Positions 14,988 through 36,577 of a stretch of DNA of 64,000 nucleotides are shown piece by piece (position 1 is the first letter of the stretch; the number at the start of each line of letters is the position of its first letter). Source of the DNA: a virus. Taxonomy: Duplodnaviria > Heunggongvirae > Uroviricota > Caudoviricetes. Location: the IMG/VR virus record IMGVR_UViG_2660238580_000002, one strand, 5' to 3'. The position numbers were made by a program, and so were the translations under genes. The notes beneath the pieces are model-generated. The model worked only from the letters and a program-made list of their open reading frames with translations, made no database searches and was not told where the DNA came from.

Positions 14988-14994
14988 AGCGTCC

Positions 14995-15965: not shown

Positions 15966-15976
15966 ACATCCCCCTT

Positions 15977-16330
15977 TCAGCGGCGACGGTTAACGGCAGG
16001 CGGTACGCCCCGTCCAAGCCAGAGATGACAACTTCCGCCATCATCCGGCGAAACCCGATCTACCCAGAAATTTTCCTCACCGATGGTCAGCGTGTCTCCA
16101 CGCCGCAGCTGCCGCACCTCATCAGTCCGGACAAACAGGGACGGGCTGGAGCCTTCAACGCGCACGCCCTGTCCGGCATAGCTGATATTTTCAGGGTCAT
16201 CAAAAACACCACGTATCACCGCACCTGACTGCTCACCGGATGTCATGGTGGCTGACGTTCCCATGTACCCGCGTATCGTTTCATCGGCGCGGGCAATGGC
16301 AGCATCGAACAGGTTATCGAAATCAGCCAC
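15977..16330 (-). CDS. FII: Head-tail joining protein FII
   Basis: 117-aa ORF, lambda gpFII length and order. Confidence 0.85.
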   Translation of the reverse strand: MADFDNLFDAAIARADETIRGYMGTSATMTSGEQSGAVIRGVFDDPENISYAGQGVRVEGSSPSLFVRTDEVRQLRRGDTLTIGEENFWVDRVSPDDGGSCHLWLGRGVPPAVNRRR

Positions 16331-16341
16331 AGCGCCTCCCG

Positions 16342-16740
16342 TTATTGCATTCTGGCCAGGCCGCGCTCTGTCATTTCGGCTGCCACACCGGCAGAGACAC
16401 GAAACGCCGTTCCCGGCAGCACAAATGCCACAGGTTCATCCCGCGTGGCGTGAAGTGCATCAGTATGCAGCTTCACCAGTGCCACGACCGTGACCAGTTC
16501 AGACGTATCCAGAATCACGGTATCCGGCTGCGCTGATCCCACCTCATTTTCATGTCCGGTCAGCACATTTTCCCGGCTGAGAGGGGTGTCCTGACCGGCA
16601 GTTTCATCCGTGTCATCAAGCTCCTCTTCCAGCTCTGCCACACGGAGCGCCAGTTCTTCTTTCGTCCCCGTCAGGCTGACATCACGGTTCAGTTGTTCAC
16701 CCAGCGAGCGGAGACGGGCAATCAGTTCATCTTTCGTCAT
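16342..16740 (-). CDS. FI: DNA packaging / head assembly protein FI
   Basis: MTKDELIARLRSLGEQ... 132 aa from internal Met of the 145-aa ORF. Confidence 0.8.
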   Translation of the reverse strand: MTKDELIARLRSLGEQLNRDVSLTGTKEELALRVAELEEELDDTDETAGQDTPLSRENVLTGHENEVGSAQPDTVILDTSELVTVVALVKLHTDALHATRDEPVAFVLPGTAFRVSAGVAAEMTERGLARMQ

Positions 16741-16781
16741 GGACTCCTCCACAGAGAAACAATGGCCCCGAAGGGCCATGA

Positions 16782-17572
16782 TTACGCCAGTTGTACGGAC
16801 ACGAACGCATCAGGGTCAGCCAGCAGCATCAGCGGTGCTGACTGAATCATGGTGAACTCACGCGCCGGATCGCCGGTGGTCACCCAGTTTTTCGGGTAAC
16901 GGGCAGAGGCGTTAATGCCTTCGCGCTGTGCGTCCGCATCCTGAATGCAGCCATAGGTGCGCAGACCGCGTGCCTGAGTGTTCCCCAGCACCATCGTGTT
17001 GTCCGGCAGGAAGTTCTTTTTGACGCCGTTTTCCACGTACTGTCCGGAATACACGACGATGGCCACATCGCCATACATCCCCTTATAGGACACCGCTTTG
17101 CCCAGGTCTTTCACCGCTGTCTCCAGCTCGGAATTAGAGCCACGACGGGTATCCAGCTTCTCCTTGACGGCTTTGAAGGAACGGAACAGCGCCCAGCCTT
17201 TCGGATCGAACACGATGATATTCACCACACCGCTGGCGTTCAGCGCGTAGGCTTCGATATCGTCGGTCGGGTCATACGTGGACTTGTCACGCTTGCTCCA
17301 CTCCGTGCCGCCGGACTGCGTGATGTTATTCTCCTCACTGCGGCCCATATCCACCTCAACCGGATCGAAGGCTTCACCGGTCATGGTGTATTTGCCCTTA
17401 AGCACGGCAGAAACTGCCTGCATCTCTTCGACCTGAGCAATGGCCAGCTCTTCGTCACGCATGTTCTGCATGATGATGCGACGGCGGCGGTAAGCCGGGT
17501 CCGCCAGATTCTGCGGATCTTCATCCGGCAGGCGACGCAGGGTCATCTGCGGATTCACTTCATGCTTCGGCT
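16782..17572 (-). pseudogene. E: Major capsid protein E, 3' fragment (from ...PKHEVNPQ to C-terminus), cut off from its 5' part by the satellite
   Basis: Reading frame continues lambda gpE from codon ~80 onward; no start codon or N-terminus here. Confidence 0.9.
17563..17572. repeat. Left junction direct repeat TGCTTCGGCT (att core within gene E)
   Basis: Identical 10-mer at 30000-30009; E-derived sequence stops being contiguous after it. Confidence 0.8.
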
Positions 17573-17706
17573 ACATGAGTCAAATATGAAAGGATGTGAA
17601 TGATTTGATTACGTTTTAGCTATAGAATTGAAATGGAAAATCCTTGAATGCAATACAACGTGCAATACATGGATGAAAACCATCACTCATTTAACAAGAG
17701 GAATCT

Positions 17707-18612
17707 ATGCGCTCACCCAACAGAATGCATGAACGCTCAACATTTTATAAGTATATGTCGTTGAATACCGCGAAGATTGTTCTTGATTCATGCAGCCTTA
17801 GATGGAGTTCTCCGGTCCTATTTAATGACCCTTTTGATGTTCCAAGAGAAGTTATGCCTGGTATTAACGAAATTAATATTGGCAAAGCTTTAGCCCGCAA
17901 GTTAATAGCGGAGTTGATTACCCCCAGAGAAGACATACAAAATTTAAACCCTAGAATTAGAACAATGCTAAGTGATTTCCAAAAGTCATTTCCTTTAGGC
18001 ATACCCGCAGGATTAATTGAAAGATTTCAAGAAATGGTAAACATTCCACCAGTTGGGATTGGCGCTCCTGCGGCAATACAAGAAATGAAAGATGTCTGGC
18101 GAGGAATGCTTAATAACAGAAGGATTTTGTGTTTATCTGAGAGCCCTATAATCACTCCTATGTGGAATCACTATGCCGATAAATATAAAGGTATAGTTAT
18201 CGAATTTGATTGTGTAGACTTTCTGGATAGCGCTTGGTTAATAGCCAAACCTATGAAATACACAGATAAAATGCCTCTAACTCACACTGCTGAAGGGATG
18301 GCCGAGTTGCTTTTCATGCCAGACAATAAGTCAATTGAATATATCAATAATGAGATAATATTCATAAAAACAGAAGAATGGGCATATGAAAGAGAGTGGA
18401 GAATTTCAACCTACGCTAGGCCAAATAGCACTGGTCAATATAGCGACTTAAAATTTCACCCTTTTGAGTTAAAATCTGTAATACTTGGTCCTCTTTTTGA
18501 TGCCAGCGAGTTCGATGAAGTCGCATCACTAGTTAAGATGTATCCAAGAGCGAAATTATTTAAAAGTTCATTTGGGAACGACAGAAAAATATCCATAGTA
18601 CCACTACCTTAA
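17707..18612 (+). CDS. DUF2971-like protein (uncharacterised satellite cargo)
   Basis: 301-aa ORF with motifs FYKYMS...LFNDPFD, YKGIVIEFD, EEWAYEREWR recalled as DUF2971 hallmarks; only plus-strand gene at this satellite end. Confidence 0.5.
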   Translation: MRSPNRMHERSTFYKYMSLNTAKIVLDSCSLRWSSPVLFNDPFDVPREVMPGINEINIGKALARKLIAELITPREDIQNLNPRIRTMLSDFQKSFPLGIPAGLIERFQEMVNIPPVGIGAPAAIQEMKDVWRGMLNNRRILCLSESPIITPMWNHYADKYKGIVIEFDCVDFLDSAWLIAKPMKYTDKMPLTHTAEGMAELLFMPDNKSIEYINNEIIFIKTEEWAYEREWRISTYARPNSTGQYSDLKFHPFELKSVILGPLFDASEFDEVASLVKMYPRAKLFKSSFGNDRKISIVPLP

Positions 18613-18718
18613 AAGGTCAAATGCTTTTGACAAATAAAATCTATCGCCAGTTTTACTGGCGACTTTTAAGCAACAAAGAACCACCTAAGCACTCTTCCTA
18701 CCTATGGTTTCATTTGTT

Positions 18719-19270
18719 TTAACTTCGCTGATTATCCTTGATATACCTTTCAGCCATATCTGGAATGTTATCTGAGATCTGGTAAGCTCGAATAAATGCT
18801 TTACTGACCTCCATCTTAATGAAGTCCTGATACCGTTTTTCCATGCCAGGAAACTGTCGACAGATCGCAAGTGGAAGACTATCAATGATTGCTCCAACTT
18901 CCCCAGTTAATTTCGACAAGGCATAAGTCGCAAATGCAGTGTCAATTACCTCACCTGTTTCGCTGGCATTCTTCAGTTCCTGTGCGTCGGCCTGCGCACG
19001 CGTAAGTCGATGGCGTTCGTACTCAATAGTCCCTGGCTGGAGATCTGCCTCGCTGGCCTGGCGCAGTTCTTCAACCTCCCGGCGCAGCTTTTCGTTCTCA
19101 ATTTCAGCATCCCTTTCGGCATACCATTTTATGACGGCGGCAGAGTCATAAAGCACCTCATTACCCTTGTCACCGCCTCGCAGAACGGGCATTCCCTGCT
19201 CCTGCTAGTTCTGAATGGTACGGATACTCGCACCGAAAATGTCAGCCAGCTGCTTTTTGTTGGCTTCCAT
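18719..19270 (-). pseudogene. Terminase small subunit Nu1 homologue with in-frame amber codon at codon 22
   Basis: ATG at 19270 reads MEANKKQLADIFGASIRTIQN then TAG (19205-19207) where helper Nu1 has TGG; ORF resumes at Met28. Confidence 0.8.
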
Positions 19271-19515
19271 TGTTCATTCCACGGACAAAACCAGAGAAAG
19301 GAAACGACAGAGGCCAAAAAGCCTGTTTTTAGCACCTGTCGTTTCCTTTCTTTTTAGGGGATGTTTTTAATAAAAACATTAAGTTACGGCGAAGAAGAAC
19401 GGAAACGCCTTAAACAGGAAAATTTTCACAAATAGCGAAAACCCGCGCGCCTGACGCCCCGTAGCCTGTCAGATCGCCGGAAAGGACCCGCCAGCCAGAG
19501 CGGGCCCTAATTTCA
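19271..19515 (-). promoter_or_regulatory. Satellite cos region (cosB-like conserved, cosN-equivalent divergent)
   Basis: Closely similar by eye to helper cos at 36190-36420, but the 12-mer at 19447-19458 differs from helper cosN at several positions. Confidence 0.6.
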
Positions 19516-19899
19516 TCAACCAATCAGCTTATAGCGACCATCCCGTGCATTGCGGCGTACACGCTCAATCTTGAGGCATAGCGCCGCATCTGGCTTTTTT
19601 GGGACAGGTACGCGGCAATATTCAGAAGCGCGAGGAATATTATTTATCCAGTCGATCACTTCACTTAAATACCAGGCCTTACGCCCTTCCGTAACCTGCA
19701 CACGCTCCGGGAACTCTCCACTAGCCTCAAGGTTTAGCAGTGTACGCCGACTCAGGGTTGTAATTTCCATCACCTGATTCATATCAACAAGGCGCTCGCT
19801 TAAACACATTTTGTCAGCGATAGCTTTTAATTCCTCTACAGCTGGATTCGGGTACATCATTTCGGCAATTGGCTTAAGGTCATTGTAATCATTCTGCAT
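19516..19899 (-). CDS. AlpA/excisionase-like HTH protein
   Basis: 127-aa ORF; C-terminal segment resembles AlpA-family HTH; lies next to satellite cos. Confidence 0.45.
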   Translation of the reverse strand: MQNDYNDLKPIAEMMYPNPAVEELKAIADKMCLSERLVDMNQVMEITTLSRRTLLNLEASGEFPERVQVTEGRKAWYLSEVIDWINNIPRASEYCRVPVPKKPDAALCLKIERVRRNARDGRYKLIG

Positions 19900-19910
19900 T
19901 GTATCCCCCT

Positions 19911-20252
19911 TTACACACGAGCCAGCGGCTGAACAGAAATACCTGAGCCAACAAACGCTGCAATCTTTACTGACAGTTCTTTTACAGACTCAGGCCAGTT
20001 CAGAGCATCAACATTTAAGACACCTGTCTTATAGACCTGAGCCCGTGTTTTTTTCGCGGTGTCGATTTGTACAGCGGAAACATAAACCGCTTTACCTACG
20101 CTCGAACCATCCCATACCACCAGTGCACCTGTTGCATCTTCCTGCATCAGTGGCGTAAATGCAGGAATTACCCCTTTATTAGCTGAAAATATCCCCAGCG
20201 TAGTCACCAGTGCTTCAGTGCCAGCCATGAGTTCAGTGTAATGAGTAGCCAT
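19911..20252 (-). CDS. Head decoration protein, gpD-like (satellite-encoded)
   Basis: 113 aa; aligns by eye with lambda gpD (PLM...WDG... core). Confidence 0.65.
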   Translation of the reverse strand: MATHYTELMAGTEALVTTLGIFSANKGVIPAFTPLMQEDATGALVVWDGSSVGKAVYVSAVQIDTAKKTRAQVYKTGVLNVDALNWPESVKELSVKIAAFVGSGISVQPLARV

Positions 20253-20261
20253 TGCTCCCCC

Positions 20262-21302
20262 TTAGCCAATGCGAACGGTAACAAAACGATTGATGCGGGC
20301 CGGTATTGGCTGTGGTGCTGAATGTGTCTGCACATATTCAATAGCCGGATCACCAGGTACAATATAGTTTTTCGGTGCAAGTTCGGCTTTAGTCAGCCCC
20401 ATTCGGATTAGCTCCGGATCCTGAATACCGCCATAGGCGACAATCCCCTGAAGAGCCGTATTGCCAAGCACCATCAAATCAGGATCAAGGAAATGTTTTT
20501 CTGTTCCGTCCTCGTCGGTATAACGCCCGCTGTAAACAACAATCGCAACATCGCCCATATACCCTTTAAAACTCACCGAATCACCAAGGTCTTTAAGGGC
20601 CGTTTCCAGTTCGGAATTAGAACCACGACGGGTATCCAAAGCCTCTTTTATCGCTCTGAATGAACGGTATTTCTTCCATACATTACCACCCATAATGATG
20701 ATATTAGTGACGCCCTCACTAAATTCTGCGTAGCTCTCAATATCATCATTTGGATCAAAAGTTTCTTTATCCTTACTTGACCACTCAGTACCGCCAGACT
20801 GAGTGATGATATTTTGTGGTTTTATATTCCAGTCCAGCTCATAACGTTCAATACCATCGCCCTCAATGATATTTTTCCCCGTTGTGATTGCCTGAACAGC
20901 AAGCCATTCAATACGTGCACGAATAGCTTTAGCTTGATTTACAATCGCCTGTTTAACTTTAATATTACGCGCCCCAAAAGCATTGTATTGCTCAGGTGAT
21001 ACACCAGCAGGGCGCACAGCTAACTTATTTGGATCAATGCTGCTTTTCGGCTTCATATAGCCTGGACGAATTGTTTTTGATTCGTACCCTTCGTCACGTG
21101 AAACTTTACTACCCACCATAGGAGAACAAAACGCTGCAATTGGGATATTTGGATCGTCGATTGTATCAAGAATAATATCGCGCGATTCAAACATTACCGA
21201 GCGAGTAAAAAACAAACTGGTAAACAACGCATTTAGTTGTTTTTGTACATCTACAGCATTAACCACCTGTACAAGCTGGGTAGGCGAATATAAATCAACC
21301 AT
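20262..21302 (-). CDS. Major capsid protein, gpE-like (satellite-encoded, divergent)
   Basis: ~347 aa from Met with AGAGGA RBS; C-terminal half close to lambda gpE (ITQSGGTEWS...DTRRGSNSELETA...), N-terminal half divergent. Confidence 0.75.
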   Translation of the reverse strand: MVDLYSPTQLVQVVNAVDVQKQLNALFTSLFFTRSVMFESRDIILDTIDDPNIPIAAFCSPMVGSKVSRDEGYESKTIRPGYMKPKSSIDPNKLAVRPAGVSPEQYNAFGARNIKVKQAIVNQAKAIRARIEWLAVQAITTGKNIIEGDGIERYELDWNIKPQNIITQSGGTEWSSKDKETFDPNDDIESYAEFSEGVTNIIIMGGNVWKKYRSFRAIKEALDTRRGSNSELETALKDLGDSVSFKGYMGDVAIVVYSGRYTDEDGTEKHFLDPDLMVLGNTALQGIVAYGGIQDPELIRMGLTKAELAPKNYIVPGDPAIEYVQTHSAPQPIPARINRFVTVRIG

Positions 21303-21587
21303 ACACATCCTCTTTGCATTCATTAAAAATAATTGTGGATATATGCTATCACCAATATTTGTCATGCGAATACATGCAACCGAGTGCAATGTTGTATAAA
21401 GTTTTGGGATGACAACTTCAGCGCGGATAATTAGTGTTAATATATTCACTCCCTTTGGTCGGGATTTATGTAGCATGCCGGAAAATTTATTTTTTCCGGC
21501 CTTTTTTATTGGCAATATTTAAAACGGAATATCATCTCCCCATTGCTCATTATCTCCCACTGGTGGATGGCTTCCTTGCTGATCTGC

Positions 21588-21968
21588 CTATTGTTTTGCT
21601 CTGTTCAGTGCGTCAGTAGCCTGACCCTGTTGACCTTTTTTGCCGCCCGGTCGCACCGTTCGCGCACTGATTACGCTGTCTGCGATAACCTGCCAGCCCT
21701 GCCGCGTTTCACCGTTCTGTCCAGTCCACTGGCTCACCTGCATGTTACCCGCCACGCTCAGGAGTTCGCCTTTGTGATGCTTTGCCAGCGCATCGGCTTG
21801 TCTGCCAAACGCCAGCACAGATAACCACATCGTCGCCGTTCCGTCATCTGCCTGGCTGCATGGCAAAGATACCGCCATCCGTGCCAGTGTCATGGGTGTT
21901 CCCTTGCTGGTATGTTTTACCTGTGGGTCGTCCACCAGCCGCCCGTAAGCTGCTATTTGCGCCGTCAT
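21588..21968 (-). CDS. SSB-like OB-fold protein
   Basis: 126-aa ORF with SSB-like pattern (W..VLAFGRQA..L.KG..L.V.G); weak. Confidence 0.4.
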   Translation of the reverse strand: MTAQIAAYGRLVDDPQVKHTSKGTPMTLARMAVSLPCSQADDGTATMWLSVLAFGRQADALAKHHKGELLSVAGNMQVSQWTGQNGETRQGWQVIADSVISARTVRPGGKKGQQGQATDALNRAKQ

Positions 21969-21979
21969 GCTGCCTGCTC

Positions 21980-22222
21980 TCAGGACTTAATATTGATGGT
22001 TGTCACTTCCTCCGCTTCGGCAATCTCCCGTTCGGTCAGCGTGGCAAAGTTTGCAGCCGCCGTTGTCATGAATGCGCTTATCAGTTCGGGATGTGCTTTC
22101 GCGTATCCTTCCCCGGCGTTGCGGTCTATTGCCTTAATCGCCACCCTTAGCCAGTGTTCAGCCATATCAAGGGCGCGGTAATGTGGCTTTATATGTTTGT
22201 TCAGTTTTCCTGATGTGTGCAT
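21980..22222 (-). CDS. Hypothetical protein
   Basis: 80-aa ORF between ori and SSB-like gene. Confidence 0.4.
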   Translation of the reverse strand: MHTSGKLNKHIKPHYRALDMAEHWLRVAIKAIDRNAGEGYAKAHPELISAFMTTAAANFATLTEREIAEAEEVTTINIKS

Positions 22223-22259
22223 TTTTATTTTTACCCCCTCGTTTAAAAAGTTTTTTGTG

Positions 22260-22500
22260 CACCACCACCTTGTCTACCTTGTCTACCTGATTAGTTATCA
22301 GGCCAGTAATGGCGCGGGTTTCAGAGAGGTAGACAGCCCCAAATAGCTGTCTACCTCATCTCTACCCGTCTCCTTACCTGTCTACAAAAATGGGTAGATA
22401 AGGTAGATAACAGGTAGACAGTGAAAAATAGTTATCTACCTGCATTAATACATTGAAATAAAAGTATTTTATTTCAGTCAGGTAGACAAGGTAGATAACC
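22260..22500. repeat. Satellite replication origin: ~12 iterons (GGTAGA[C/T]A core, both orientations) around an AT-rich tract
   Basis: Repeated gtctacc/ggtagac motifs directly upstream of pri-rep. Confidence 0.8.
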
Positions 22501-22511
22501 ATTGCCATTTT

Positions 22512-24263
22512 TTATAAAAACGCATCGCAATCATCAGTAGTCGTTGCGTTGGTCTGAGTGACTCCCTTAACTTTTCGCGTAATATATTCATATCCGTAAA
22601 CTTTCGCCGCTGACCTCATAGCCTTTCCGAACTCATTCACGCTCAAACATTTCCCCTTTCCTGTATATGCCATGAAGGCCATATAGACACGGTAAAGGCT
22701 GTTTCTGGTCGTGTACTTCACGGTGTCACCACCACCGCCCATCATTAGCCCACGAGCTTCCTCCAGAAACTCCAGCGCCGCGCAAAGCTCAACAACCGGA
22801 TCCGTTTGCTGCTTTATTGCCAGAGCTTCATCACCGTCACGCTGTTCCAGTAATAAAGCCCGTGCCTTTTCAGGGTCAGCAAAATTAGCCAGCAAGCGGC
22901 GGATAATTACGGGGATTTCTGCCGCTATCTTTTCCGGTAATTCCTTGTCTTTTTCGTCCTCCCTTACAATGTTGTCGAACCGGAAAATCACCCGACGGCG
23001 TGACACACCTCCGGCCCGTTCGGTAAAGATCATCGGGTCGTTATTGGTTGCCAGTACCACCGCCCTTATTATCGTCGTGAATCGCTTCTCATATTTCGGG
23101 TTAATTTCAACGGGATCGCCTCCCGTGATTTTCTTGATGCCCGTGCCTTCCCCCGTATATTTCGGCTGATCGGCAAGGACGATAAGACGACTCCCGACAA
23201 CCTGCGCGCGCCCTCCTGCATCATCGAGTGATGTCATCTCTGCGCTTACGGTGTTCTGTTTGCCAGCAAGCAGGGTGGCAATATGAGTAAATGTGCTCTT
23301 TCCGCTTCCCCCGTCTCCGGTGGCCTCAATGAACATCTGCCAGTCGTAGCGGTTCGCCATAATCATGTATAACGCGGCACATATACGCATCATCTTGCGC
23401 GGGTCTTTTCCTGCAGCATGTTCAAGCCATTTATGGAAATTTGGCGCATTATCGCGGATGTTTTCCCCTGCTACTGGTGGCGTGTACTCAATACCATTGT
23501 GCGTGGTGCTCCAGTGCTCCGGCGAGTGCGGAGAAAATTCCCCCGTTTTCAGATTAAGCACACCATTAGTGAACGGTAGCAAATCACCGGACGGCTCCCC
23601 CATGGGGGCGGCAATAACTTTTAACGCTTCCACGGCGTTATTGATTACGCGCTTGCTGAACGTGGCCCTGTGCTCTGAATAGATCGCCACCATTTCGCGG
23701 CTCAGCTCCATTGTGCTGACCGGACACCATACCCCGCCGCGCCATACGTGGACGATTTCACTTTCTGCATGAACACAAACACCATCAAAGCGATCGGCAA
23801 GTAGTTGTGCCCGCTCACTGTCTGCCATCTGTGAAAGTTGCGCCTTTTGCTTCGTCGGAAGATTAAGCACCAGGCTTTCCCCACGCTCGCATTCCTCTTT
23901 GAGTCGCGGCAACTGGTCGGATAAATCCACTGGGCTGGTGTCAGTAATCCCCGCGTATTCGTGTACGGTCTTCACTCCAGCCACAGCCAGTAACGTAACA
24001 ATCTGCGTCATGCTGTGCTCTGTGATATGTCCTGCGCGGTAAACACGCACACACTGACGATCTTCATCAATGATCCGGTAATCGGTGATGTTTTTCAGTT
24101 GCTCATCAGCCAACACGACAGGCGGCACATCGTCGGCGGCAATATGTTTACCCGCCCATTCCTGCCACTCTTTCGCATGGCTCCACGCATCACTACCTGC
24201 AAAGATGATTACCTCTGTCAGTCTGTCGCGTGGCTGTTTTTTTAAGTTCGGTGCCAGTTTCAT
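22512..24263 (-). CDS. Primase/helicase replication protein (Pri-Rep, P4-primase family)
   Basis: 583-aa ORF with P-loop GDGGSGKST and helicase-like C-terminus; adjacent iteron ori. Confidence 0.8.
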   Translation of the reverse strand: MKLAPNLKKQPRDRLTEVIIFAGSDAWSHAKEWQEWAGKHIAADDVPPVVLADEQLKNITDYRIIDEDRQCVRVYRAGHITEHSMTQIVTLLAVAGVKTVHEYAGITDTSPVDLSDQLPRLKEECERGESLVLNLPTKQKAQLSQMADSERAQLLADRFDGVCVHAESEIVHVWRGGVWCPVSTMELSREMVAIYSEHRATFSKRVINNAVEALKVIAAPMGEPSGDLLPFTNGVLNLKTGEFSPHSPEHWSTTHNGIEYTPPVAGENIRDNAPNFHKWLEHAAGKDPRKMMRICAALYMIMANRYDWQMFIEATGDGGSGKSTFTHIATLLAGKQNTVSAEMTSLDDAGGRAQVVGSRLIVLADQPKYTGEGTGIKKITGGDPVEINPKYEKRFTTIIRAVVLATNNDPMIFTERAGGVSRRRVIFRFDNIVREDEKDKELPEKIAAEIPVIIRRLLANFADPEKARALLLEQRDGDEALAIKQQTDPVVELCAALEFLEEARGLMMGGGGDTVKYTTRNSLYRVYMAFMAYTGKGKCLSVNEFGKAMRSAAKVYGYEYITRKVKGVTQTNATTTDDCDAFL

Positions 24264-24559
24264 TTTTTGCCCCTGAATGCGTTAATCATGCTTTTCATTT
24301 TCTGGATGTTTCCCCGCGCTTTTTCCCTGCTGATGGGCTTACTGCGGGGTGCGGCATATACCAGGGAAAAATCACGCCGGAACTGATAAACAGGCATCAC
24401 GCAGTCATAGCTATACCCCTCACGACGGTAAGTGATGCGCCGTTCTGCCACGCCTTTAATCGTTACCGTGCCGCCGTATTTATCGCGGTAAATATCGCCG
24501 TTCATAAATTCAGGCCGAGCGGGGCCGCTGGCAATAAAGCCAGAATTTTTCATTTCCAT
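24260..24559 (-). CDS. Hypothetical satellite protein
   Basis: 99-aa ORF, stop overlaps pri-rep start. Confidence 0.5.
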   Translation of the reverse strand: MEMKNSGFIASGPARPEFMNGDIYRDKYGGTVTIKGVAERRITYRREGYSYDCVMPVYQFRRDFSLVYAAPRSKPISREKARGNIQKMKSMINAFRGKK

Positions 24560-24576
24560 ATTATTTATTCCTCGAC

Positions 24577-24798
24577 TTAACTCGACTTATTTGATAGCAG
24601 GGCACTATTTATTGCGTCATTGAGTTTTTCTGCTGCTTCATCAATAAGTGACAACAGGCCATAAGCAATATTTGCATCTTCATTGTCATTTATGCAATCA
24701 AGCCACATATTTAATATTGCTTTTGCTGAATTATTTAAAGTTAATGAACTTTCTGCACATGCTAACAATTTAAAAAAGACTTCCCGTTCTGTATTCAT
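24577..24798 (-). CDS. Hypothetical satellite protein
   Basis: 73-aa ORF in minus-strand operon. Confidence 0.4.
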   Translation of the reverse strand: MNTEREVFFKLLACAESSLTLNNSAKAILNMWLDCINDNEDANIAYGLLSLIDEAAEKLNDAINSALLSNKSS

Positions 24799-24990
24799 TT
24801 AATCCCCCACCAGCTTACTTTCTTCCTCAATCAAAAAACTAGCGACACTTCCCGAAAGACGCGCCAGTAGGCTCGCCAGTGCGGATATATCAGCATCTGT
24901 AATTTTGTTCGGGTATACCTCAAGAAGGCGGCAAATAATTTCTGTCTGGTGCGCACGTTCAGCGGCTTCGTGTAATGTGATTTCCTGCAT
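24799..24990 (-). CDS. Hypothetical satellite protein
   Basis: 63-aa ORF in minus-strand operon. Confidence 0.4.
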   Translation of the reverse strand: MQEITLHEAAERAHQTEIICRLLEVYPNKITDADISALASLLARLSGSVASFLIEEESKLVGD

Positions 24991-25182
24991 TAATGCACCT
25001 CTTTTAATTCATACACTGCTGAAATAATGACTTGTGATAAGCCATATTCTGATGATTCGCTTCTCACCGCAGCAATAGCCGTCTGAACATTAACAGCCTT
25101 CACGTTCTGAGCGATACCAATTGTGTGGCCTAGTGGGTTAACCGCACGAGCAAATACACGGAAGGTTTTAAGCACGGCATAC
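24990..25182 (-). pseudogene. Satellite ORF body separated from its start by IS629
   Basis: Frame is open across the IS629 target site but has no ATG downstream of the insertion; the track ORF borrows IS sequence for its N-terminus. Confidence 0.4.
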
Positions 25183-25224
25183 TGAACCGCCCCGGGTTTC
25201 CTGGAGAGTGTTTTATCTGTGAAC

Positions 25225-26115
25225 TCAGGCTGCCAGATCATCGTTTCCGATGGAAGCATAATAAGCTTTTTCTGCTTCTGCCGGAGGAGTATGGCCCAGC
25301 CTTTCCAGCAATCGTCGATTGTTATACCAGTCCACCCACGTGAGTGTGGCCAGTTCCACTTCTGCACGGTTTTTCCAGCTCTTACGGTGTATTACCTCCG
25401 CTTTGTAAAGACCATTGATGCTCTCCGCCATCGCGTTGTCATACGAGTCGCCTGTACTTCCTGTTGATGCCAGTAATCCGGCTTCCTTAAGCCGCTGTGT
25501 GTAGGCCAGCGATACATACTGAGAACCTTTATCACTGTGATGGACCGTGCCGGACGGTCGACGGGCCCATAACGCCTGCTCCAGTGCATCCAGCACGAAT
25601 GTCGTTTCCATGGACGATGAGACCCGCCACCCCACGATGTATCCGGCAAACACATCAATGATGAACGCCACATAGACGAAGCCCCGCCATGTGCTGACGT
25701 AAGTAAAATCAGCCACCCACAGCTGGTCAGGTCGTTCTGCCACGAACTGACGGTTTACGCGGTCGCCTGCGGCAACGGCTTTCCGGCTGATGGTCGTACG
25801 GACCTTTTTACCCCGGAGAACACCGGCAAGTCCCATAACCGCCATGAGACGTGCCACAGTGCATCTGGCCACTCTGATACCTTCCCGTAACAACTGACGC
25901 CAGACTTTACGCACACCGTATACCTTGTGATTTTCATCGTATACGCGCTGTATCTCTTTCTTCAGCCAGTCATCGCGCTGCGCACGGGCACTGCGTTTAT
26001 CCGGATGATGTCGCTGTTGCTGACAGTGGTAATACGTTGACGGGGCAATATGCAGTTCGCTGCATAGCGGTCCGACCCCGTACTGCTCACGCAGCTTATC
26101 CAGCAGTGGCATCAT
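25225..26115 (-). CDS. IS629 transposase OrfB (DDE, made as OrfAB by frameshift)
   Basis: 296-aa [21 protein letters not shown]... Confidence 0.9.
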
Positions 26116-26438
26116 TTTTTCCAGAGGCGGTCGAACTCCGCCTTCGCAAAATAAGCGGAAGCCTGGCGAAGGATATCGTTACTGCGGCGCAGTTCACGAT
26201 TTTCACGTTCCAGCTCTTTCAGACGCTGACGTTCAGCGGTGGTGAGCCCTCCATCACCGCCCCCGGTATCCCGCTCATGCTGGCGAACCCAGACACGCAG
26301 AGTCTCCGGCGTACAGCCAATCTTTGGAGCAATGGAACAAATTGTCGCCCATTGTGAGTCATATTCGCTCTGACTTTCCAGAACCATACGGACTGCCCGT
26401 TGACGGACTTCGGGGGAAAAACGAGTATTTTTAGTCAT
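26112..26438 (-). CDS. IS629 OrfA
   Basis: 108-aa [22 protein letters not shown]... Confidence 0.9.
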
Positions 26439-26492
26439 CCTGTTTACCTCTTTCTCAGGAAGTTTAGTCTCCAGGATTCCCGGGGCGGTTCA

Positions 26493-26684
26493 TACCTCCT
26501 GACGAATACGGGCGGCAAATATCATCACGCAGCCAGTTGGGGATTGTTGGCGGGCTTCCTGTTCGCTGGCGGCCTCGATGTGTATTACGCGTGGTTGTGC
26601 GGTGCTCAGGGCGATAAAACGCCAGATGTATTTATTCAGGTTGTGCGGGTCCCGCCCTTGCGGGTGTGTGGTATGATTTCTCAT
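26493..26684 (-). CDS. Small satellite protein, last 3 codons replaced by IS629 end
   Basis: 64-aa ORF; stop codon supplied by the IS terminus. Confidence 0.45.
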
Positions 26685-26779
26685 AGCTATCTCGATACTG
26701 TTGCTATCGTTGGTGGTTAGAAGCCCGTTGGTGTTCCTAGCGCCTTCGGGCTTTGCTTTTTTAAGTGCCTCCGTGTTAA

Positions 26780-26823
26780 GGTGGTCACCTAACAGTAAAA
26801 AGGCTAATTCAATAGGTGGTCAC
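26780..26823 (+). promoter_or_regulatory. Two GGTGGTCAC direct repeats (operator-like) in the divergent promoter region
   Basis: Identical 9-mers at 26780-26788 and 26815-26823, 35 bp apart, upstream of the RHH gene. Confidence 0.35.
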
Positions 26824-27015
26824 TTGTCAACAATCAAACGCGATAAAAGTCCTAAGGGTGATGGGCAATCTCCACAATTCAGAATGCGAATTTCTCCAGA
26901 GCTAAAAGAGCAATTCGACAAAGAAGCGCAGAGCGACGGCATAAGCCTAGCCAACTGGCTTAAAGAATTAGGGCGCAAAGAGCTGCTACGGCGCGGTATT
27001 GAACCAAAAGGATAA
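26824..27015 (+). CDS. Ribbon-helix-helix (Arc/MetJ-like) DNA-binding protein, candidate satellite repressor
   Basis: RHH-like FRMRISPELKEQFDKEA...LANWLKELG; possible TTG start after AGGTGG (ATG alternative at 26884); divergent from leftward operon. Confidence 0.45.
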   Translation: MSTIKRDKSPKGDGQSPQFRMRISPELKEQFDKEAQSDGISLANWLKELGRKELLRRGIEPKG

Positions 27016-27042
27016 GAGTAATTGAAGTCAAGGAGCTAACAC

Positions 27043-27399
27043 ATGAAATACGAATTCTTCGCAACAAGTAGCAGTAGTTTGGATGTATACATAGTCACTG
27101 TATCAAACGATTCTAGCTCGCTAATCATGACTTGCAATTGTCCAGCAGGAAGTAAAGGTATTCTATGTAGACACCGTAAAGCTTTAATTACCGGAAAAAT
27201 CCGTGGTATATTCACTCCCCCAAGAAGGAATAATCCCGAAAAGTTACAAGAAGCTATAAATTTAATAACCACATATGGCATAGATAAAACATTAAAGTTG
27301 TACACTGATGAGTTAGAACGAGCAGAACAGACTTGGATAAGTGTTCGCGATAATTTGAGAGCAATGATAAACGCTCTTGTTGAACCACCTAAATATTGA
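27043..27399 (+). CDS. SWIM-zinc-finger-like small protein
   Basis: 118-aa ORF with CNCPAGSKGILCRH (CxCxnCxH). Confidence 0.4.
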   Translation: MKYEFFATSSSSLDVYIVTVSNDSSSLIMTCNCPAGSKGILCRHRKALITGKIRGIFTPPRRNNPEKLQEAINLITTYGIDKTLKLYTDELERAEQTWISVRDNLRAMINALVEPPKY

Positions 27400-27530
27400 A
27401 CTGTTCACATTGCCTATCAGTCGACAACCTCGTATTCTGATTAAGGCTAACTATATACTCACATTGGCGACCAATTCTGGTCGCCTTTATCCACCATTTT
27501 TATAACATCATAGATTAAAAGTGTTAATCC

Positions 27531-28361
27531 TTACCCCCTGAATGGAATTGATGAGGATTTAATTTCCACTGAACTAAATCCTTTTGAATCCAAGAACATT
27601 TTTATACCAGCCTCAATGAAATCATAATCGTTTGTCGGGCCAATAGTAATACTTTTAATTGGTAACTTCCTATGATCTTTATTACCAATGATGATATAAG
27701 GGATGACACCATTATTATTTATTCTGAATTGCACATCTGGTATTAGTATGCGCGGAGTAAATACCAATCTAAATTCATTTTCTTCGATAAAACTAGGATG
27801 TTTAAAAAATGGGATGTATTTAGATATAAATTGATACGTAGAGGCCATTGTTACAAAATGATCATTCTTTTCTTTAATATTAATACCATTACAAGAAAAA
27901 AACGCCCCCAACTCCTTACTCATCTTAGTAACATCGTTATTATTTGAATATATAACATCATGTGCAACACAATTTAAATAAATATTTTGAGAAAAGCTCA
28001 CAAGTTCATCCGCATCAAACTCAATGCAAACACCCTGTTTATTTCCGTAACCTCTCCACTGACTTAACTTATCGTTTTCCTTACAAAAAGAGATGCTATA
28101 AACATGTTTATCAATCCCTTTTTCTTTTTGTAACCTCCCTTTCTCATACATGTCAAGAGACTTGAGCAAAATAGTTTTCTTATCTTTTGGAATGATATTG
28201 TCATCAACTATTTTAATTGTATTTCGAAAGCATTCACATCCATGGTTAGACTCCTCTTTATCATTTAAGAAATATATGTTTGTAGCCCATAAAGAATTAG
28301 AGTCTAATATACCTTTCAAACCAAAAAGATCTGTATAATGAAATATAGCCACAATGCCCAC
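27531..28361 (-). CDS. DUF2971-like protein (second copy; cargo downstream of alpA)
   Basis: 276-aa ORF with FHYTDL...LWATNIYFLNDKEE, SQWRGYG..GVCIEFD, FIEENEFRL motifs. Confidence 0.5.
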   Translation of the reverse strand: MGIVAIFHYTDLFGLKGILDSNSLWATNIYFLNDKEESNHGCECFRNTIKIVDDNIIPKDKKTILLKSLDMYEKGRLQKEKGIDKHVYSISFCKENDKLSQWRGYGNKQGVCIEFDADELVSFSQNIYLNCVAHDVIYSNNNDVTKMSKELGAFFSCNGINIKEKNDHFVTMASTYQFISKYIPFFKHPSFIEENEFRLVFTPRILIPDVQFRINNNGVIPYIIIGNKDHRKLPIKSITIGPTNDYDFIEAGIKMFLDSKGFSSVEIKSSSIPFRG

Positions 28362-28368
28362 CTAATAG

Positions 28369-28599
28369 TTAAGTTGTTTCCCACTCACCTCGAATCCATG
28401 CCTGCACTTCTGAAAGACGATATGCAACAGCAGTGGAACCAATCTTGATCCGCTTAGGAAATTTTCCTTCCTTCTCCAGCTTCCAGCGTGTGCTGTTCGC
28501 AAGAGTGGTTAGCTCCCGACATTCTTTCTCACGGATCATTCGGTCAATGTTAGGAATGTACTCCAGACCCTTTTTATCAACAATTGCCATTTTTTTCAT
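28369..28599 (-). CDS. alpA: AlpA-family transcriptional regulator
   Basis: 76-aa ORF directly downstream of int, AlpA-like HTH. Confidence 0.75.
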   Translation of the reverse strand: MKKMAIVDKKGLEYIPNIDRMIREKECRELTTLANSTRWKLEKEGKFPKRIKIGSTAVAYRLSEVQAWIRGEWETT

Positions 28600-28600
28600 G

Positions 28601-29836
28601 TTAACCAGCCTTTTGTTTGAGGATTGTCACTTTTGAATCAGCACCTGCGATGCTATTGAGATATGTAGTCCAGAGTTCCAGAGCATCCAGTTTTTTAGCC
28701 ATAAACTTACTCCGGTTGTAAACACCTGCCACGCCAGGTAGCGCATGGCCTAACAGTTGTTCTACTACATAAAATTCAACACCGAGATCACTTAGATGAG
28801 TAGATAGCGTTCTTCTAAGGTCGTGTAGTGACCATTGTTTTTCATGGCCCAAACGTTTACCGATTTTCCCCCCAATCTTGCTTACGCTTTCTCTAATTCG
28901 CAGACTTCCCAGCACATAACCAGTATGTTTTGTCTCTTCGTGAACATCCGTTACCCACTGTCGTAGAATTTCAGGTACTGGTCTGACGATTTCAACACCG
29001 GTTTTTGAGTGTTCTTTTGGTACAGTCCAAACCCAACTTTCTAGATCCCATTCGCTCCATTCTGATAATCGGGCTTCACTCATTCGACATCCAAATACTG
29101 TACAAAGCACAAACATTTTTCGCGTGTATTCAGACATTAGTTTTAAATCAGGCTCGACAAAAATTGCCTTCCAGAGCTGGCCCAGTTCGGCTTCATCCAG
29201 AACCCGATCCCGCTTACCTGCAATCTGCCCCACATCACTCATGCGCAAATCCTTTAAAGCATCACACGTCGCGTACTGGCGTACCCGACAAAAACGAAGA
29301 GCTAATTTAGTGTCAGAAAAAACATACGCCGCCATAACTGGTGCATTACGTTTAATTCGGTCAAAACAGTCCAGCCATTCATATAGGTGAGTGTCATTTA
29401 CGGGCAAATGACCGATATAGGGAAAGATATGCTTTCGAAATCTGCCAAGCGTTACAGCATGAGTTTTACGACGCACCTTACAGTAATTTTCATACCAGTA
29501 ATTTAGTGCATCCTCCACTGTGACCGGCTTTAAGCGTTCTTCAGCCTGAATCTTAATCTGGATACGCGGATCACGTTTGTCAGCCAACCAACCACGGCAC
29601 TCGTCGCGCTTTTCTCTTGCCTGTTTGAGTGACATATCAGGATATTTACCCAACGTTAGCCAGACCGGAGCAGCCCGGCCACCTGCTAACCTGTAGAAGA
29701 AAACAAAGCTCACAGCCCCCTTAGTACTCACACGAATAGAAAGCCCCTTTCCATCAGCAATGGTGATCTGCTTTTCTCTGGGTTTCCCCAGATATCCTTT
29801 AAGCGCTTTGTCGCTCAGTTTGTTCTCGCCAGCCAT
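28601..29836 (-). CDS. int: Tyrosine integrase (P4-type)
   Basis: 411 aa from MAGENKLSDKALKGY; catalytic HDLRRT...LGH...Y region; adjacent to right att repeat. Confidence 0.9.
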   Translation of the reverse strand: MAGENKLSDKALKGYLGKPREKQITIADGKGLSIRVSTKGAVSFVFFYRLAGGRAAPVWLTLGKYPDMSLKQAREKRDECRGWLADKRDPRIQIKIQAEERLKPVTVEDALNYWYENYCKVRRKTHAVTLGRFRKHIFPYIGHLPVNDTHLYEWLDCFDRIKRNAPVMAAYVFSDTKLALRFCRVRQYATCDALKDLRMSDVGQIAGKRDRVLDEAELGQLWKAIFVEPDLKLMSEYTRKMFVLCTVFGCRMSEARLSEWSEWDLESWVWTVPKEHSKTGVEIVRPVPEILRQWVTDVHEETKHTGYVLGSLRIRESVSKIGGKIGKRLGHEKQWSLHDLRRTLSTHLSDLGVEFYVVEQLLGHALPGVAGVYNRSKFMAKKLDALELWTTYLNSIAGADSKVTILKQKAG

Positions 29837-29968
29837 TTTTAGCCCCAAAAAGCAATACAAGCTGCAATACAGAGATGATTGCAACACACAGATAACGAGG
29901 AAAATCCAGTGAAAGCGCCAGATAATCTTATTCTTTATTATCAAAGAATTAAGTGTAAAAACCAGCAA

Positions 29969-30244
29969 CTACACGAAAGCCTCAGAAAGCCATGCTAAGT
30001 GCTTCGGCTTGACATATCCCGGCGTAAATTCAGAGGTGGAGCCGCCACGGGAACGGATAACCTCACCGGAAACAATCGGCGAAACGTACAGCGCCATGTT
30101 TACCAGTCCCGGAATTTGTGAGAGATAGACTTTCTCCGTGGTGAAGGGATAGCTCTCACGGAAAAAGAGACACAGAAACAGCGGATCAAACTTAAATTTC
30201 TGCTCATTTGCCGCCAGCAGTTGGGCGGTTGTGTACATCGACAT
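29969..30244 (-). pseudogene. E: Major capsid protein E, 5' fragment (codons 1-82 fused to 9 satellite codons and a stop)
   Basis: MSMYTTAQLLAANEQKFKFDPLF...GYVKPKH then LAWLSEAFV*. Confidence 0.9.
30000..30009. repeat. Right junction direct repeat TGCTTCGGCT (att core within gene E)
   Basis: Identical to 17563-17572; E sequence resumes immediately after. Confidence 0.8.
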
Positions 30245-30299
30245 AAAAAAATCCCGTAAAAAAAGCCGCACAGGCGGCCTTTAGTGATGAAGGGTAAAG

Positions 30300-30632
30300 T
30301 TAAACGATGCTGATTGCCGTTCCGGCAAACGCGGTCCGTTTTTTCGTCTCGTCGCTGGCAGCCTCCGGCCAGAGCACATCCTCATAACGGAACGTGCCGG
30401 ACTTGTAGAACGTCAGCGTGGTGCTGGTCTGGTCAGCAGCAACCGCAAGAATGCCAACGGCAGCACCGTCGGTGGTGCCATCCCACGCAACCAGCTTACG
30501 GCTGGAGGTGTCCAGCATCAGCGGGGTCATTGCAGGCGCTTTCGCACTCAATCCGCCGGGCGCGGTTGCGGTATAAGCCGGGTCACTGTTGCCCAGCGGC
30601 TGGTAATGGGTAAAGGTTTCTTTGCTCGTCAT
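30300..30632 (-). CDS. D: Head decoration protein D
   Basis: [12 protein letters not shown]... 110 aa, lambda gpD. Confidence 0.95.
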
Positions 30633-30641
30633 AAACATCCC

Positions 30642-31941
30642 TTACACTGGTGTGTTCAGCAAATCGTTAACGGCATCAGATGCCGGGTTACCTGCAGCCA
30701 GCGGTGCCGGTGCCCCCTGCATCAGACGATCCAGCGCAGTGTCACTGCGCGCCTGTGCACTCTGTGGTGCTGCGGCCAGAATGCGGCGGGCCGTTTCCAC
30801 GGTCATACCGGGGGTTTCTGCCAGCACGCGTGCCTGTTCTTCGCGTCCGTGAGCCTCCTCACAGTTGAGGATCCCCATAATGCGGCTGTTTTCTGCCGCA
30901 ACCGCTGCGGTGATCTGCGCGTTCACGTCCGGCTGCGCCGCGCTGGCGTTTTCGCCCTCCGTCGCTGGCACCACGTCAGTAACGTCAGCCTGCGAAGCAG
31001 TGGCTGAAACAGTTGTTGATTGAGTCTCTTTGGTCATTCGCCCTCCTGAGAGACGGGATTTACGTGCATCCAGTGCATCACGCATGACGGTGATCGCATC
31101 GGTGCTGTTAACAAGTTCATCAGCCAGTCCGGCATCAATGGCCTCCTGACCGCTGTACACTGCAGCCTCGGTATCCAGCACAGCCTGCACGGACAGGCCG
31201 GTATATGCCGACACCTTCTGCGCAAACATCTGGCGGGTTGCGTCCATCCGGGACTGCAGTGTCTCCCGGACGTCATCCGGAAGATGGCTGTAGGGGTTGC
31301 CATCCACCTTATGGCTGCCGCTGTAAATCAGAGTGATTTCCACACCCTGTTTCTCCAGCGCAGCACCGTAATTACTGTGAGCCATCATGACGCCGATGGA
31401 GCCTGTCCGGGCGGTCTGCGTGACCAGACGCCGGGAGGCGGCACTGGCAAGCAGCTGACCTGCACTGCAGTTCATGTCGTTGGCCAGCGCCCATACCGGT
31501 TTTATGTCACGCACACGGGCGATGATGTCAGCGCAGTCAAATGCCCCCGCCACCATCCCTCCGGGCGTGTCCATATCGAGCAGAATGCCGTCCACCATCG
31601 GATCGCTGGCAGCCTGTTGCAGACGGGCGATAATGCCGTTGTAACCGGTCATCCCCGAATACGGCTGCAGCGCCCGCGTCCGGCTGACCAGCGTGCCGGA
31701 CACCGGCAGCACGGCGATGCCGTTCATGACCTGATAACTGCGGGCCTGTCGTGGTCCGTCATCATCAACGGATAACGCCAGCGCCGCGGGTGCCTCTCCG
31801 GCAGTCAGGCTGTCGCCGGACACCGCATCCGTCAGGCGGCTGATCCCAAGCTGGCCTGCAAGCGCACAAAAGAAAACCCGCGCATAGGCGGGTTCAAGCA
31901 TCAGCGGCTCATTAAAAGCCATGCTGGCAATATGCGGGAGA

Positions 31942-31961
<20 letters not shown>
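30642..31961 (-). CDS. C: Capsid assembly protease/scaffold C (Nu3 nested in frame), GTG start
   Basis: VTAELRNLPHIASMAFNEPLML...; first codon GTG where lambda has ATG (from memory). Confidence 0.85.
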
Positions 31962-33743
<1,782 letters not shown>

Positions 33744-33747
<4 letters not shown>

Positions 33748-35669
33748 TCATCCTCTCCGGATAAGGCACGGGCGTAATCTGCCAGTGTTTTCTTGTTGGT
33801 TGCTGCACCATCCTCTTCCTGCAGGCTCGCCAGCAGTGCACTGAGATCCAGCTGCCAGCGGGAAATACTGATGCGCAGCGCCGCCAGCGCATAAACGAAG
33901 CAGTCGAGTGCCTCATTGCGTCGCTTTTTGCTGTCCCACAGTATTTTTTTCCTGCCATCCACCCATTTTTCGACCTGCTCTTCAGCAGTCAGCTGCTGCG
34001 CTTCGGTCAGATCAAAAATATCCGGGTTATTCGGGAAGTGAACGGCACCGGGAAGCGGTTCATCCCCTTCCGGCGTCAGTGTGAAGCGGTTATAAATCTG
34101 CTCTTTCGCGGTATCCGTACCGATTTCGGTAAGGTAAACCCCGTTTTTGTTTCGCTTACGTGGCATGCTGGCCACCGGCTTTCCGTAGACGGATGCCCCT
34201 TTAATGGGGATCACCCGGAACAGCCCATGTTTTTTCGAGCGTTCATACACAATGGTCGGGTCAATCCCGCCAGTATCCCAGCAGATACGGGATACCGACA
34301 TTTCTGCACCATTCCGGCGGGTATAGGTTTTATTGATGGCCTCATCCACACGCAGCAGCGTCTGTTCATCGTCGTGGCGACCCATAATAATCTGCCGGTC
34401 AATCAGCCAGCTTTCCTCACCCGGCCCCCATCCCCATACGCGCATTTCGTAGCGGTCCAGCTGGGAGTCGATACCGGCGGTCAGGTAAGCCACACGGTCA
34501 GGAACGGGCGCTGAATAATGCTCTTTCCGCTCCGCCATCACCTCAGCATCCGGACGTTCGCCGATTTTCGCTTCCCATGTCTCACCGAGCGTGGTGTTCA
34601 CGAAGGTTTTACGTTTTCCCGTATCCCCTTTCGTCTTCATCCAGTCTTTGACAATCTGCACCCAGGTGGTGAACGGGCTGTACGCCGTCCAGATGTGAAA
34701 GGTCACACTGTCCGGCGGCTCAATCTCTTCACCGGATGACGAAAACCAGAGAATGCCATCACGGGTCCAGATCCCGGTCTTTTCGCAGATATAACGGGCA
34801 TCAGTAAAGTCCAGCTCCTGCTGGCGGATGACGCAGGCATTATGCTCGCAGAGATAAAACACGCTGGAGGGGTCATCCGGCGTCCATTTGAGGCCAAACG
34901 GCGTCTCTTTGTCGCCAAATTTAAGATACTGCTCCTCCCCGCAGTGCGGGCAGGCAACATGAAAACGCATAAAATGCAGGGATTCACTGGCTGCACGCTC
35001 AATCTGGCAGGTGCCTCTCACTTTGGGCGTGGAGCCACGGATGGACTTTGGCCAGACCGAGCCTTCAATACGTTTGTCGCCAAGGAACGTCGGAGAGCCT
35101 TCCTGTTCAATATCCTCATCAAAGGCAGCAAGTTCATCATAACCCGCCACATCCACCGACTTTTCACGGTAGTTTTTTGCCGCTTTACCGCCCAGGCACC
35201 AGAAGCCACGACCATTGGAAAAACGCTTCATAGTGAGCGTGTTATCCCGGTGCTTTTTGCCATACCACGGAGCCAGCGCCAGCAGCGACGGAATATCGCG
35301 GATGGTCGGCTCAACGTGGGTTTTCATAAAGTTCTCGGCATCACCATCCGTCGGCAACCAGATAAGGGTGTTGCGCTGCTTATGCTCTATAAAGTAGGCA
35401 TAAACACCCAGCAGCATTTTGGAATAACCGACACGGGCAGACTTCACCACATTCACCTCACGGATGTAGTCGCTGCCCATCGCATTCATGATGGCCCGCT
35501 GAAAGGGCAGTGTTTCCCAGCGCCCTTCCTGGTATGCGGATTCTTTCGGGAGATAGTAATTAGCATCCGCCCATTCAACGGCGGTCTGTGGCTCCGGCCT
35601 GAACAGTGAGCGAAGCCCGGCGCGGACAAAATGCCGCAGCCTGTTAACCTGACTGTTCGATATATTCAC
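33744..35669 (-). CDS. A: Terminase large subunit A
   Basis: 641-aa ORF MNISNSQVNRLRHFVRAG..., lambda gpA. Confidence 0.95.
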
Positions 35670-36189
35670 TCAGCAACCCCGGTATCAGTTCATCCAGCGC
35701 GGCTGCTTTGTTCATGGCTTTGATGATATCCCGTTTCAGGAAATCAACATGTCGGTTTTCCAGTTCCGGAAAACGCCGCTGCACCGACAGGGGGATCCCG
35801 TCGAGAATACTGGCAATTTCACCTGCGATCCGCGACAGCACGAAAGTACAGAATGCGGTTTCCACCACTTCAGCGGAGTCTCTGGCATTTTTCAGCTCCT
35901 GTGCGTCGGCCTGCGCACGCGTAAGTCGATGGCGTTCGTACTCAATAGTCCCTGGCTGGAGATCTGTCTCGCTGGCCTGCCGCAGTTCTTCAACTTCCCG
36001 GCGCAGCTTTTCGTTCTCAATTTCAGCATCCCTTTCGGCATACCATCTTATAACGGCGGCAGAGTCATAAAGCACCTCATTACCCTTGCCACCGCCTCGC
36101 AGAACGGGCATTCCCTGTTCCTGCCAGTTCTGAATGGTACGGATACTCGCACCGAAAATGTCAGCCAGCTGCTTTTTGTTGACTTCCAT
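35644..36189 (-). CDS. Nu1: Terminase small subunit Nu1
   Basis: 181-aa ORF MEVNKKQLADIFGASIRTIQNWQEQG..., lambda Nu1. Confidence 0.95.
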   Translation of the reverse strand: MEVNKKQLADIFGASIRTIQNWQEQGMPVLRGGGKGNEVLYDSAAVIRWYAERDAEIENEKLRREVEELRQASETDLQPGTIEYERHRLTRAQADAQELKNARDSAEVVETAFCTFVLSRIAGEIASILDGIPLSVQRRFPELENRHVDFLKRDIIKAMNKAAALDELIPGLLSEYIEQSG

Positions 36190-36420: not shown

Positions 36421-36577
36421 TGATTATCATCTACATATCACAACGTGCGTGGAGGCCATCAAACCACGTCAAATAATCAATTATGACGCAGGTATCGTAT
36501 TAATTGATCTGCATCAACTTAACGTAAAAACAACTTCAGACAATACAAATCAGCGACACTGAATACGGGGCAACCTC

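Follow-up and report, generated by a model that had tools for sequence, protein, structure and literature searches.

Two described systems come closest to the locus reported here, on the one hand, the insertion sequence IS629 as found in the prophages of E. coli O157, and on the other hand, the phage satellites embedded in the capsid gene of a helper prophage. In O157, 62% of the IS629 copies lie in prophages and the target duplications flanking the element are 3-4 bp long (PMC3271280). In E. coli O157:H7, full-length IS629 copies that had newly inserted recombined homologously with another IS629, and 54-63 kb of an island were thereby deleted (Bielaszewska et al., 2011; PMC3064760). As for the satellites, a site group of helper-embedded PICIs designated E:Phage_cap_E_80, with a 10-bp identity block in the capsid gene, was described by Tommasini, Mageeney and Williams (2023; PMC10111431), and excision and transfer on helper induction were demonstrated experimentally for their model strain. 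The window considered here, i.e., the whole stretch of 64,000 nucleotides analysed (IMG/VR record IMGVR_UViG_2660238580_000002; Caudoviricetes), brings the two systems together, and its present structure is very probably the outcome of two separate and recent transpositions of an apparently active IS629 into a Qin-type prophage that carries a helper-embedded PICI in its capsid gene E.

The window corresponds to almost one whole composite element, namely a Qin-type lambdoid prophage located between ydfJ and rspB, with a satellite in its capsid gene E. On the helper side, pinQ, the tail fibre and the tail genes occupy 1-16.7 kb and the head and packaging genes 30.0-36.2 kb; the lysis genes lie near 39 kb, with Q, relBE, hokD, dicA, dicB and ydfD beyond them, and the exonuclease, xis and int genes close the element at 59.9-64 kb. 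Several RNAs typical of Qin-type prophages are matched by Rfam models, namely (i) DicF (57882-57933), (ii) the sok antitoxin RNA adjoining hokD (48383-48554), (iii) two cspA-type thermoregulator leaders (38250-38635 and 41145-41537), and (iv) the IS009 RNA in the tail-fibre assembly region (743-941). As for P4-type immunity RNAs, neither the C4 nor the isrK model of Rfam gave a match above threshold in the window. Of note, the early region of the helper is interrupted by two further transposable elements, i.e., the IS66-family ISEc23 (tnpA, tnpB and tnpC, the latter at 51849-53462) at about 49.7-53.5 kb and a partial ISNCY transposase towards 47 kb.

The satellite spans about 12.4 kb (17563-30009, minus strand) inside the helper major capsid gene E; a 10-bp identity block, which reads AGCCGAAGCA on the minus strand, delimits it at 17563-17572 and 30000-30009. 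The N-terminal 82 codons of gene E end in ...GYVKPKH at about 30000 and the reading frame resumes with PKHEVNPQ... at about 17570; the same major capsid gene is annotated as split in relatives, and excision of the satellite would restore it. As identified by profile matches, a tyrosine integrase (28601-29836) and an adjoining AlpA (28369-28599) stand at the upstream end, followed by a DUF2971 gene (27531-28352), then by a SWIM gene, which is opposite in orientation to the operon and lies between the DUF2971 and Icd-like genes. Further on come a primase with D5_N/DUF5906 Pfam domains (22512-24263), an ssb gene carrying a premature stop (21519-21968), the satellite's own capsid E (20262-21302) and decoration D (19911-20252) genes, a second AlpA-family gene (19516-19899) situated in the late zone between the decoration and Nu1-like genes, and a truncated Nu1-like gene (18719-19192), which together with a cos-like region falls within 18719-19351; a second DUF2971 gene (17854-18612) lies on the plus strand, in opposite orientation. 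The succession of integrase and AlpA at the upstream end, primase, and late genes, all on the minus strand, is that of helper-embedded PICIs.

Compared with the PICIs of site group E:Phage_cap_E_80 (11capE type), the likeness extends to the integrase, AlpA, D5-type primase and own capsid E and decoration D genes, as well as to the co-orientation of the satellite with the helper capsid gene, the insertion at about codon 80 and the 10-bp identity block. Since gene content, capsid E site and identity block all match the published description (PMC10111431), the terms satellite and helper, as employed in the initial annotation, refer to real entities of an already published type. Two differences are nonetheless found, namely that the helper is here a Qin-type prophage at ydfJ/rspB while that of the model strain is an icd-site prophage, and that the satellite of the window carries an IS629.

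Some features of the satellite deserve mention in their own right. The ssb product is 126 aa long instead of 149 aa in ES10, and the stop is common to E. coli LST200A (NZ_CP110858.1), where it is annotated as an internal stop. The Nu1-like gene lacks about the first 26 positions of the profile and an internal stop is annotated in relatives; a cos-like hairpin region lies beside it, within 18719-19351. This same stretch resembles the helper nohA/cos region (35643-36270), with repeat families 88% (direct) and 77% (inverted) alike and a blastn identity of about 93.6% over 531 bp. An ORF at 26701-27015, on the plus strand and immediately upstream of the Icd-like gene, gives a weak match to the HicB family (E 0.0014, below threshold) and overlaps a stretch where relatives have a broken hypothetical gene annotated on the opposite strand; it could encode a small DNA-binding regulator facing the promoter region of the operon.

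The two IS629 copies are located at 25183-26492 (copy 1) and 58349-59658 (copy 2), both on the minus strand. Each is 1310 bp long; reading of the sequence and comparison by script revealed 0 differences between them, with the identity ending exactly at both termini, and a repeat finder recovered the same pair, 33,166 bp apart from start to start. As the transposase genes of both copies are on the minus strand, the copies are direct repeats; copy 1 runs in the same direction as the satellite operon, and copy 2 is antisense to the dicB-ydfD-exonuclease-xis-int genes of the helper. The termini begin with TG and end with CA, as expected of IS629 within the IS3 family, and form imperfect terminal inverted repeats, TGAACCGCCCCGGG...CCCGGGGCGGTTCA, which match at 24 of the first 27 positions in both copies. 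When the window was scanned for this terminal repeat with 2 mismatches allowed, the four true IS629 ends were retrieved together with one chance match at 34039, and further IS629 fragments in the window were thereby ruled out.

Each copy encodes two partly overlapping products, given here with the coordinates of copy 1. The orfA gene (26112-26438, minus strand) specifies 108 aa, i.e., the length of annotated IS629 OrfA, with a Pfam HTH_Tnp_1 domain (E 7e-13), and orfB (25225-26115, minus strand) specifies the DDE core of 296 aa, matching Pfam rve (E 8e-28) and NCBIfam transpos_IS3 (E 1e-93); the IS3 transposase model of NCBIfam matches both genes. At the orfA/orfB overlap of both copies, Rfam detects the ALIL pseudoknot of -1 frameshifting (RF01497), which in copy 1 spans 26041-26157 on the minus strand and scores 120 bits against a gathering score of 50. 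Members of the IS3 family transpose by a copy-out-paste-in route. Judging from these intact genes and ends, both copies are complete and apparently functional, and the transposition activity of the element is inferred from the same features together with the presence of two insertions that are missing in a near-identical relative.

The name IS629 rests on an element annotated as mobile_element 'IS3 family IS629' in LC567824.1, a record from a phage collection, to which the window copies are 99.5% identical over 1310 bp, with 6 substitutions, no gaps and the same end points; the IS1203-type copies annotated in O157 are about 97% identical. The element is widespread, with matches in 4,264 of the 5,426 complete E. 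coli genomes, many of them to copies that are 100% identical, and copies with 100% identity also occur on many plasmids of E. coli and Salmonella, on E. coli chromosomes and in a phage 21 int-region record. Respective to IS629 and its isoforms IS1203 and IS3411, the element itself thus shows no difference, and only the two insertion sites are new. The initial annotation had called copy 1 a complete IS629 of 1310 bp, with which length, ends, open reading frames and database match agree, and had reported an identical second copy in the same orientation with an AGT duplication of its own, as borne out by the 0 differences between the copies and by the AGT on both flanks of copy 2.

At the nucleotide level, copy 1 is flanked by TAC on its left (25180-25182) and right (26493-26495), and sequence comparison places an AGT on the left (58346-58348) and right (59659-59661) of copy 2. 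Both duplications are 3 bp long and fit the 3-4 bp range published for IS629 (PMC3271280). More direct evidence comes from relatives in which the sites are empty. A 12-kb query around copy 1 is covered to at least 80% in at least 26 complete E. coli genomes and, in the closest relatives among the matches listed, the 89% of the query that is covered corresponds to everything but the IS. The closest of all among the matches listed, E. coli LST200A, is collinear with the whole window in the same order and orientation, with identities of 99.87% (window 1-18348), 99.99% (16000-25182), 99.96% (26491-39408), 99.99% (37661-49773), 100% (51102-58351) and 99.98% (59659-64000). The alignment stops at 25182 to restart at 26491, and stops at 58351 to restart at 59659, so that both IS629 sites are empty in LST200A and hold one copy of each triplet, a single TAC in place of copy 1 and a single AGT in place of copy 2; relative to the window, only the two IS629 copies and a 1331-bp IS2 are absent from this genome. 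These empty sites with single triplets constitute stronger evidence of insertion than the duplications alone, and it follows that two separate insertions took place into an otherwise unchanged element. A comparison with IS-free homologues had been suggested earlier and LST200A provides it at both sites; the earlier view that the insertions were independent is sustained by the differing duplications, the two empty sites and the collinearity of the intervening DNA.

An identical IS pair in direct orientation bracketing a block of DNA is also what would be seen if both copies and the 31.9 kb between them had arrived together as one composite transposon. In that case a single outer duplication would be expected, while each copy exhibits an inner and an outer member of its own pair (TAC/TAC and AGT/AGT), and collinearity with LST200A, where both sites are free of IS, holds for the DNA within the pair as well as for that around it. 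A composite-transposon origin was therefore rejected, its probability being practically nil. Likewise, assemblies often go wrong at IS elements present in several identical copies, and one or both copies could in principle be repeats misplaced by the assembler. A misplaced repeat, however, would not create a target duplication, whereas both copies here show exact 3-bp duplications, and their sites are uninterrupted in a relative of more than 99.8% identity, the flanks being free of rearrangement, which makes an artefact extremely unlikely. Two separate insertions thus stand as the preferred reading, and their age can be approached from the junctions. With a 600-bp query, junction 1 was covered by no record among the 5,426 complete E. 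coli genomes, and around junction 2 just nearby, non-identical IS insertions were found, in five of these genomes. The exact 30-nt patterns of both junctions had no match in species-representative genomes, and that of junction 1 had none in JGI metagenome contigs. As neither junction occurs in the collections searched, both insertions are recent and private to the source strain.

A third insertion is likewise private to the window prophage. A 1331-bp element at 49772-51102, presumably IS2 in view of its length, its end sequences and its 301-aa ORF, sits in the tnpA of ISEc23, where it is flanked by the duplication CTTCG (49767-49771 and 51103-51107), and is absent from LST200A. That three IS insertions are new with respect to a near-identical strain suggests that IS elements have recently been active in the source lineage. 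Conversely, ISEc23, the partial ISNCY and the internal stops in the satellite ssb and Nu1-like genes are all common to LST200A. Since the former two are shared, the helper was probably defective before IS629 inserted, and the composite element as a whole was probably impaired or decaying by then. The same set of differences could be viewed otherwise, i.e., the insertions would have been selected for silencing harmful prophage functions, such as the lysis protein YdfD and satellite replication, rather than being neutral accidents. As many as three IS insertions, two IS629 and one IS2, indeed separate the window prophage from the near-identical one of LST200A, and ydfD is annotated as encoding a lysis protein. 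Yet IS629 commonly lands in prophages anyway, as the 62% of copies in O157 indicates (PMC3271280), one of the three new insertions lies inside another IS with no apparent benefit, and no parallel insertion was found in the other genomes among the 5,426 complete E. coli ones. As such, selection appears improbable.

Upstream of the satellite primase, an Icd-like gene and a 61-codon ORF share 8 bp, and copy 1 inserted inside this overlap. The copy had been placed between the regulators and the primase, and its flanks are indeed the integrase/AlpA end on one side and the primase gene on the other side. The Icd-like ORF (26490-26684, minus strand) now encodes 64 aa, formerly 67, the intact end ...QEVCRA being reduced to ...QEV and the TGA stop being supplied by the first three bases of the IS, exactly the replacement of the last 3 codons that had been described. 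As the match to the NCBIfam model NF033153 phage_ICD_like (E 8e-20) spans residues 19-62, the domain is kept despite this loss; the IS-free form of the gene is annotated in both LST200A and ES10. Directly downstream of copy 1, the 61-codon ORF (24990-25175, minus strand) is annotated in IS-free relatives and has no Pfam or NCBIfam match. It had been reported as separated from its upstream start, which holds only in part. The annotated GTG start (25173-25175) remains attached and stands 7 bp from the IS, whose end (…GGGGCGGTTCAGTATGCC) has replaced AGGAGGTATGCC in front of it, so that the AGGAGG ribosome-binding site lies 1313 bp away, and the alternative upstream in-frame TTG as well as the overlap with the Icd-like gene are also cut off. 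Read from this arrangement, any translational coupling of the 61-codon ORF to the Icd-like gene is lost.

Downstream of the insertion, the chain comprises a 63-aa ORF, a 73-aa ORF, a DUF4222 gene and the D5_N/DUF5906 primase (22512-24990, minus strand; Pfam), with overlapping or abutting coordinates. From the Icd-like gene through the primase, the genes overlap or abut except for one 17-bp gap, and a single transcription unit is thus a reasonable inference. On this basis, a polar effect of copy 1 on the downstream satellite genes, as anticipated in the initial annotation, is plausible. A consensus scan of IS629 for signals acting on the operon strand returned one weak terminator-like hairpin (25725-25710, minus strand), no strong terminator inside the element and no outward promoter at its downstream end, and a literature search on IS629 polarity or outward promoters returned nothing specific. 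Because the IS points in the same direction as the operon and contains no strong terminator, read-through is possible and the effect could be partial; copy 1 would then reduce, but need not abolish, the expression of the downstream small ORFs and of the primase. An insert of 1.3 kb that is largely translated only after a rare frameshift favours Rho-dependent termination, and Rho acting on the poorly translated orfB is a possible route to polarity.

Pushed to its limit, read-through from the satellite promoter, aided by the IS's own promoter, could keep the primase operon expressed and leave copy 1 functionally silent. The co-orientation of the IS with the operon is in keeping with such an outcome, as are the single weak terminator-like hairpin on the operon strand within the IS and the retention of nearly all the coding sequence in both flanking ORFs, residues 19-62 of the Icd-like protein being intact. 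Nevertheless, the 1.3 kb added are of the kind that favours Rho-dependent termination, as they are in large part translated only after a rare frameshift, and the first downstream ORF is deprived of its AGGAGG and of its coupling, which leaves silence a doubtful though still appreciable possibility next to the reduced expression preferred here. Whatever the level of expression, integrase and alpA are upstream of copy 1 and untouched, and excision of the satellite should therefore remain possible, and with it the restoration of the helper capsid gene. Given that both flanking frames are essentially whole while integrase and alpA are untouched upstream, it may even be conceived that copy 1 uncoupled satellite replication from excision, turning the PICI into an excisable switch of the capsid gene that no longer competes as a parasite. 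This bolder proposal is very unlikely; if true, the prophage or the host would thereby have begun to domesticate the satellite.

Copy 2 lies in the early region of the helper, where it splits ydfD (58293-59797, plus strand; 63 aa when intact) within codon 19. When the empty site is reconstructed, its translation yields the complete YdfD sequence, annotated in LST200A as 'lysis protein YdfD'. Being antisense to the dicB-ydfD-exonuclease-xis-int genes, copy 2 is likely more polar than copy 1. In phage lambda, expression of xis and int at induction comes from the early-left transcript. By analogy, copy 2 may hamper excision of the whole composite prophage.

The presence of two 1310-bp direct repeats has a further predicted consequence. 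RecA-dependent recombination between them would delete 33,166 bp, in agreement with the approximately 33 kb first estimated, and would leave one IS629 flanked by TAC and AGT. On the satellite side, the DNA between the copies comprises the Icd-like, SWIM, DUF2971, alpA and integrase genes and the int-proximal attachment site. On the helper side, it comprises the first 82 codons of gene E, followed by D, protease, portal, terminase and cos, and then the lysis genes, Q and the majority of the early genes as far as ydfD. The content first proposed for this deletion needs correction for one of its parts. Helper head, lysis and most early genes would be lost as stated; the half of the satellite that holds replication, capsid and cos functions would not, the primase, capsid and Nu1-like genes and the cos-like region (17.6-25.2 kb) lying to the left of copy 1 and outside the deletion interval. 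The remnant would be immobile. The route is the same as that of the IS629 deletions of O157:H7, with the difference that the window shows the precursor state only (PMC3064760). No genome with the deletion product was encountered, nor was one to be expected, the insertions being absent from all other genomes searched.

Taken on its own, the behaviour of IS629 at this locus is ordinary prophage decay and already known; IS629 insertions in prophages and IS629-IS629 deletions are well documented, and the finding has little import beyond the annotation of the window strain. Of greater interest is the arrangement of a satellite within a capsid gene, which, however, has been known since 2023 (PMC10111431). 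Some practical value nevertheless lies in the corrected map of the DNA that the predicted deletion would remove, and in the observation that the excision genes of the satellite are untouched, so that the helper capsid gene can probably still be restored. Finally, with prophages that differ by three IS insertions, the window strain and LST200A constitute a matched pair for the study of IS polarity in a helper-embedded satellite.
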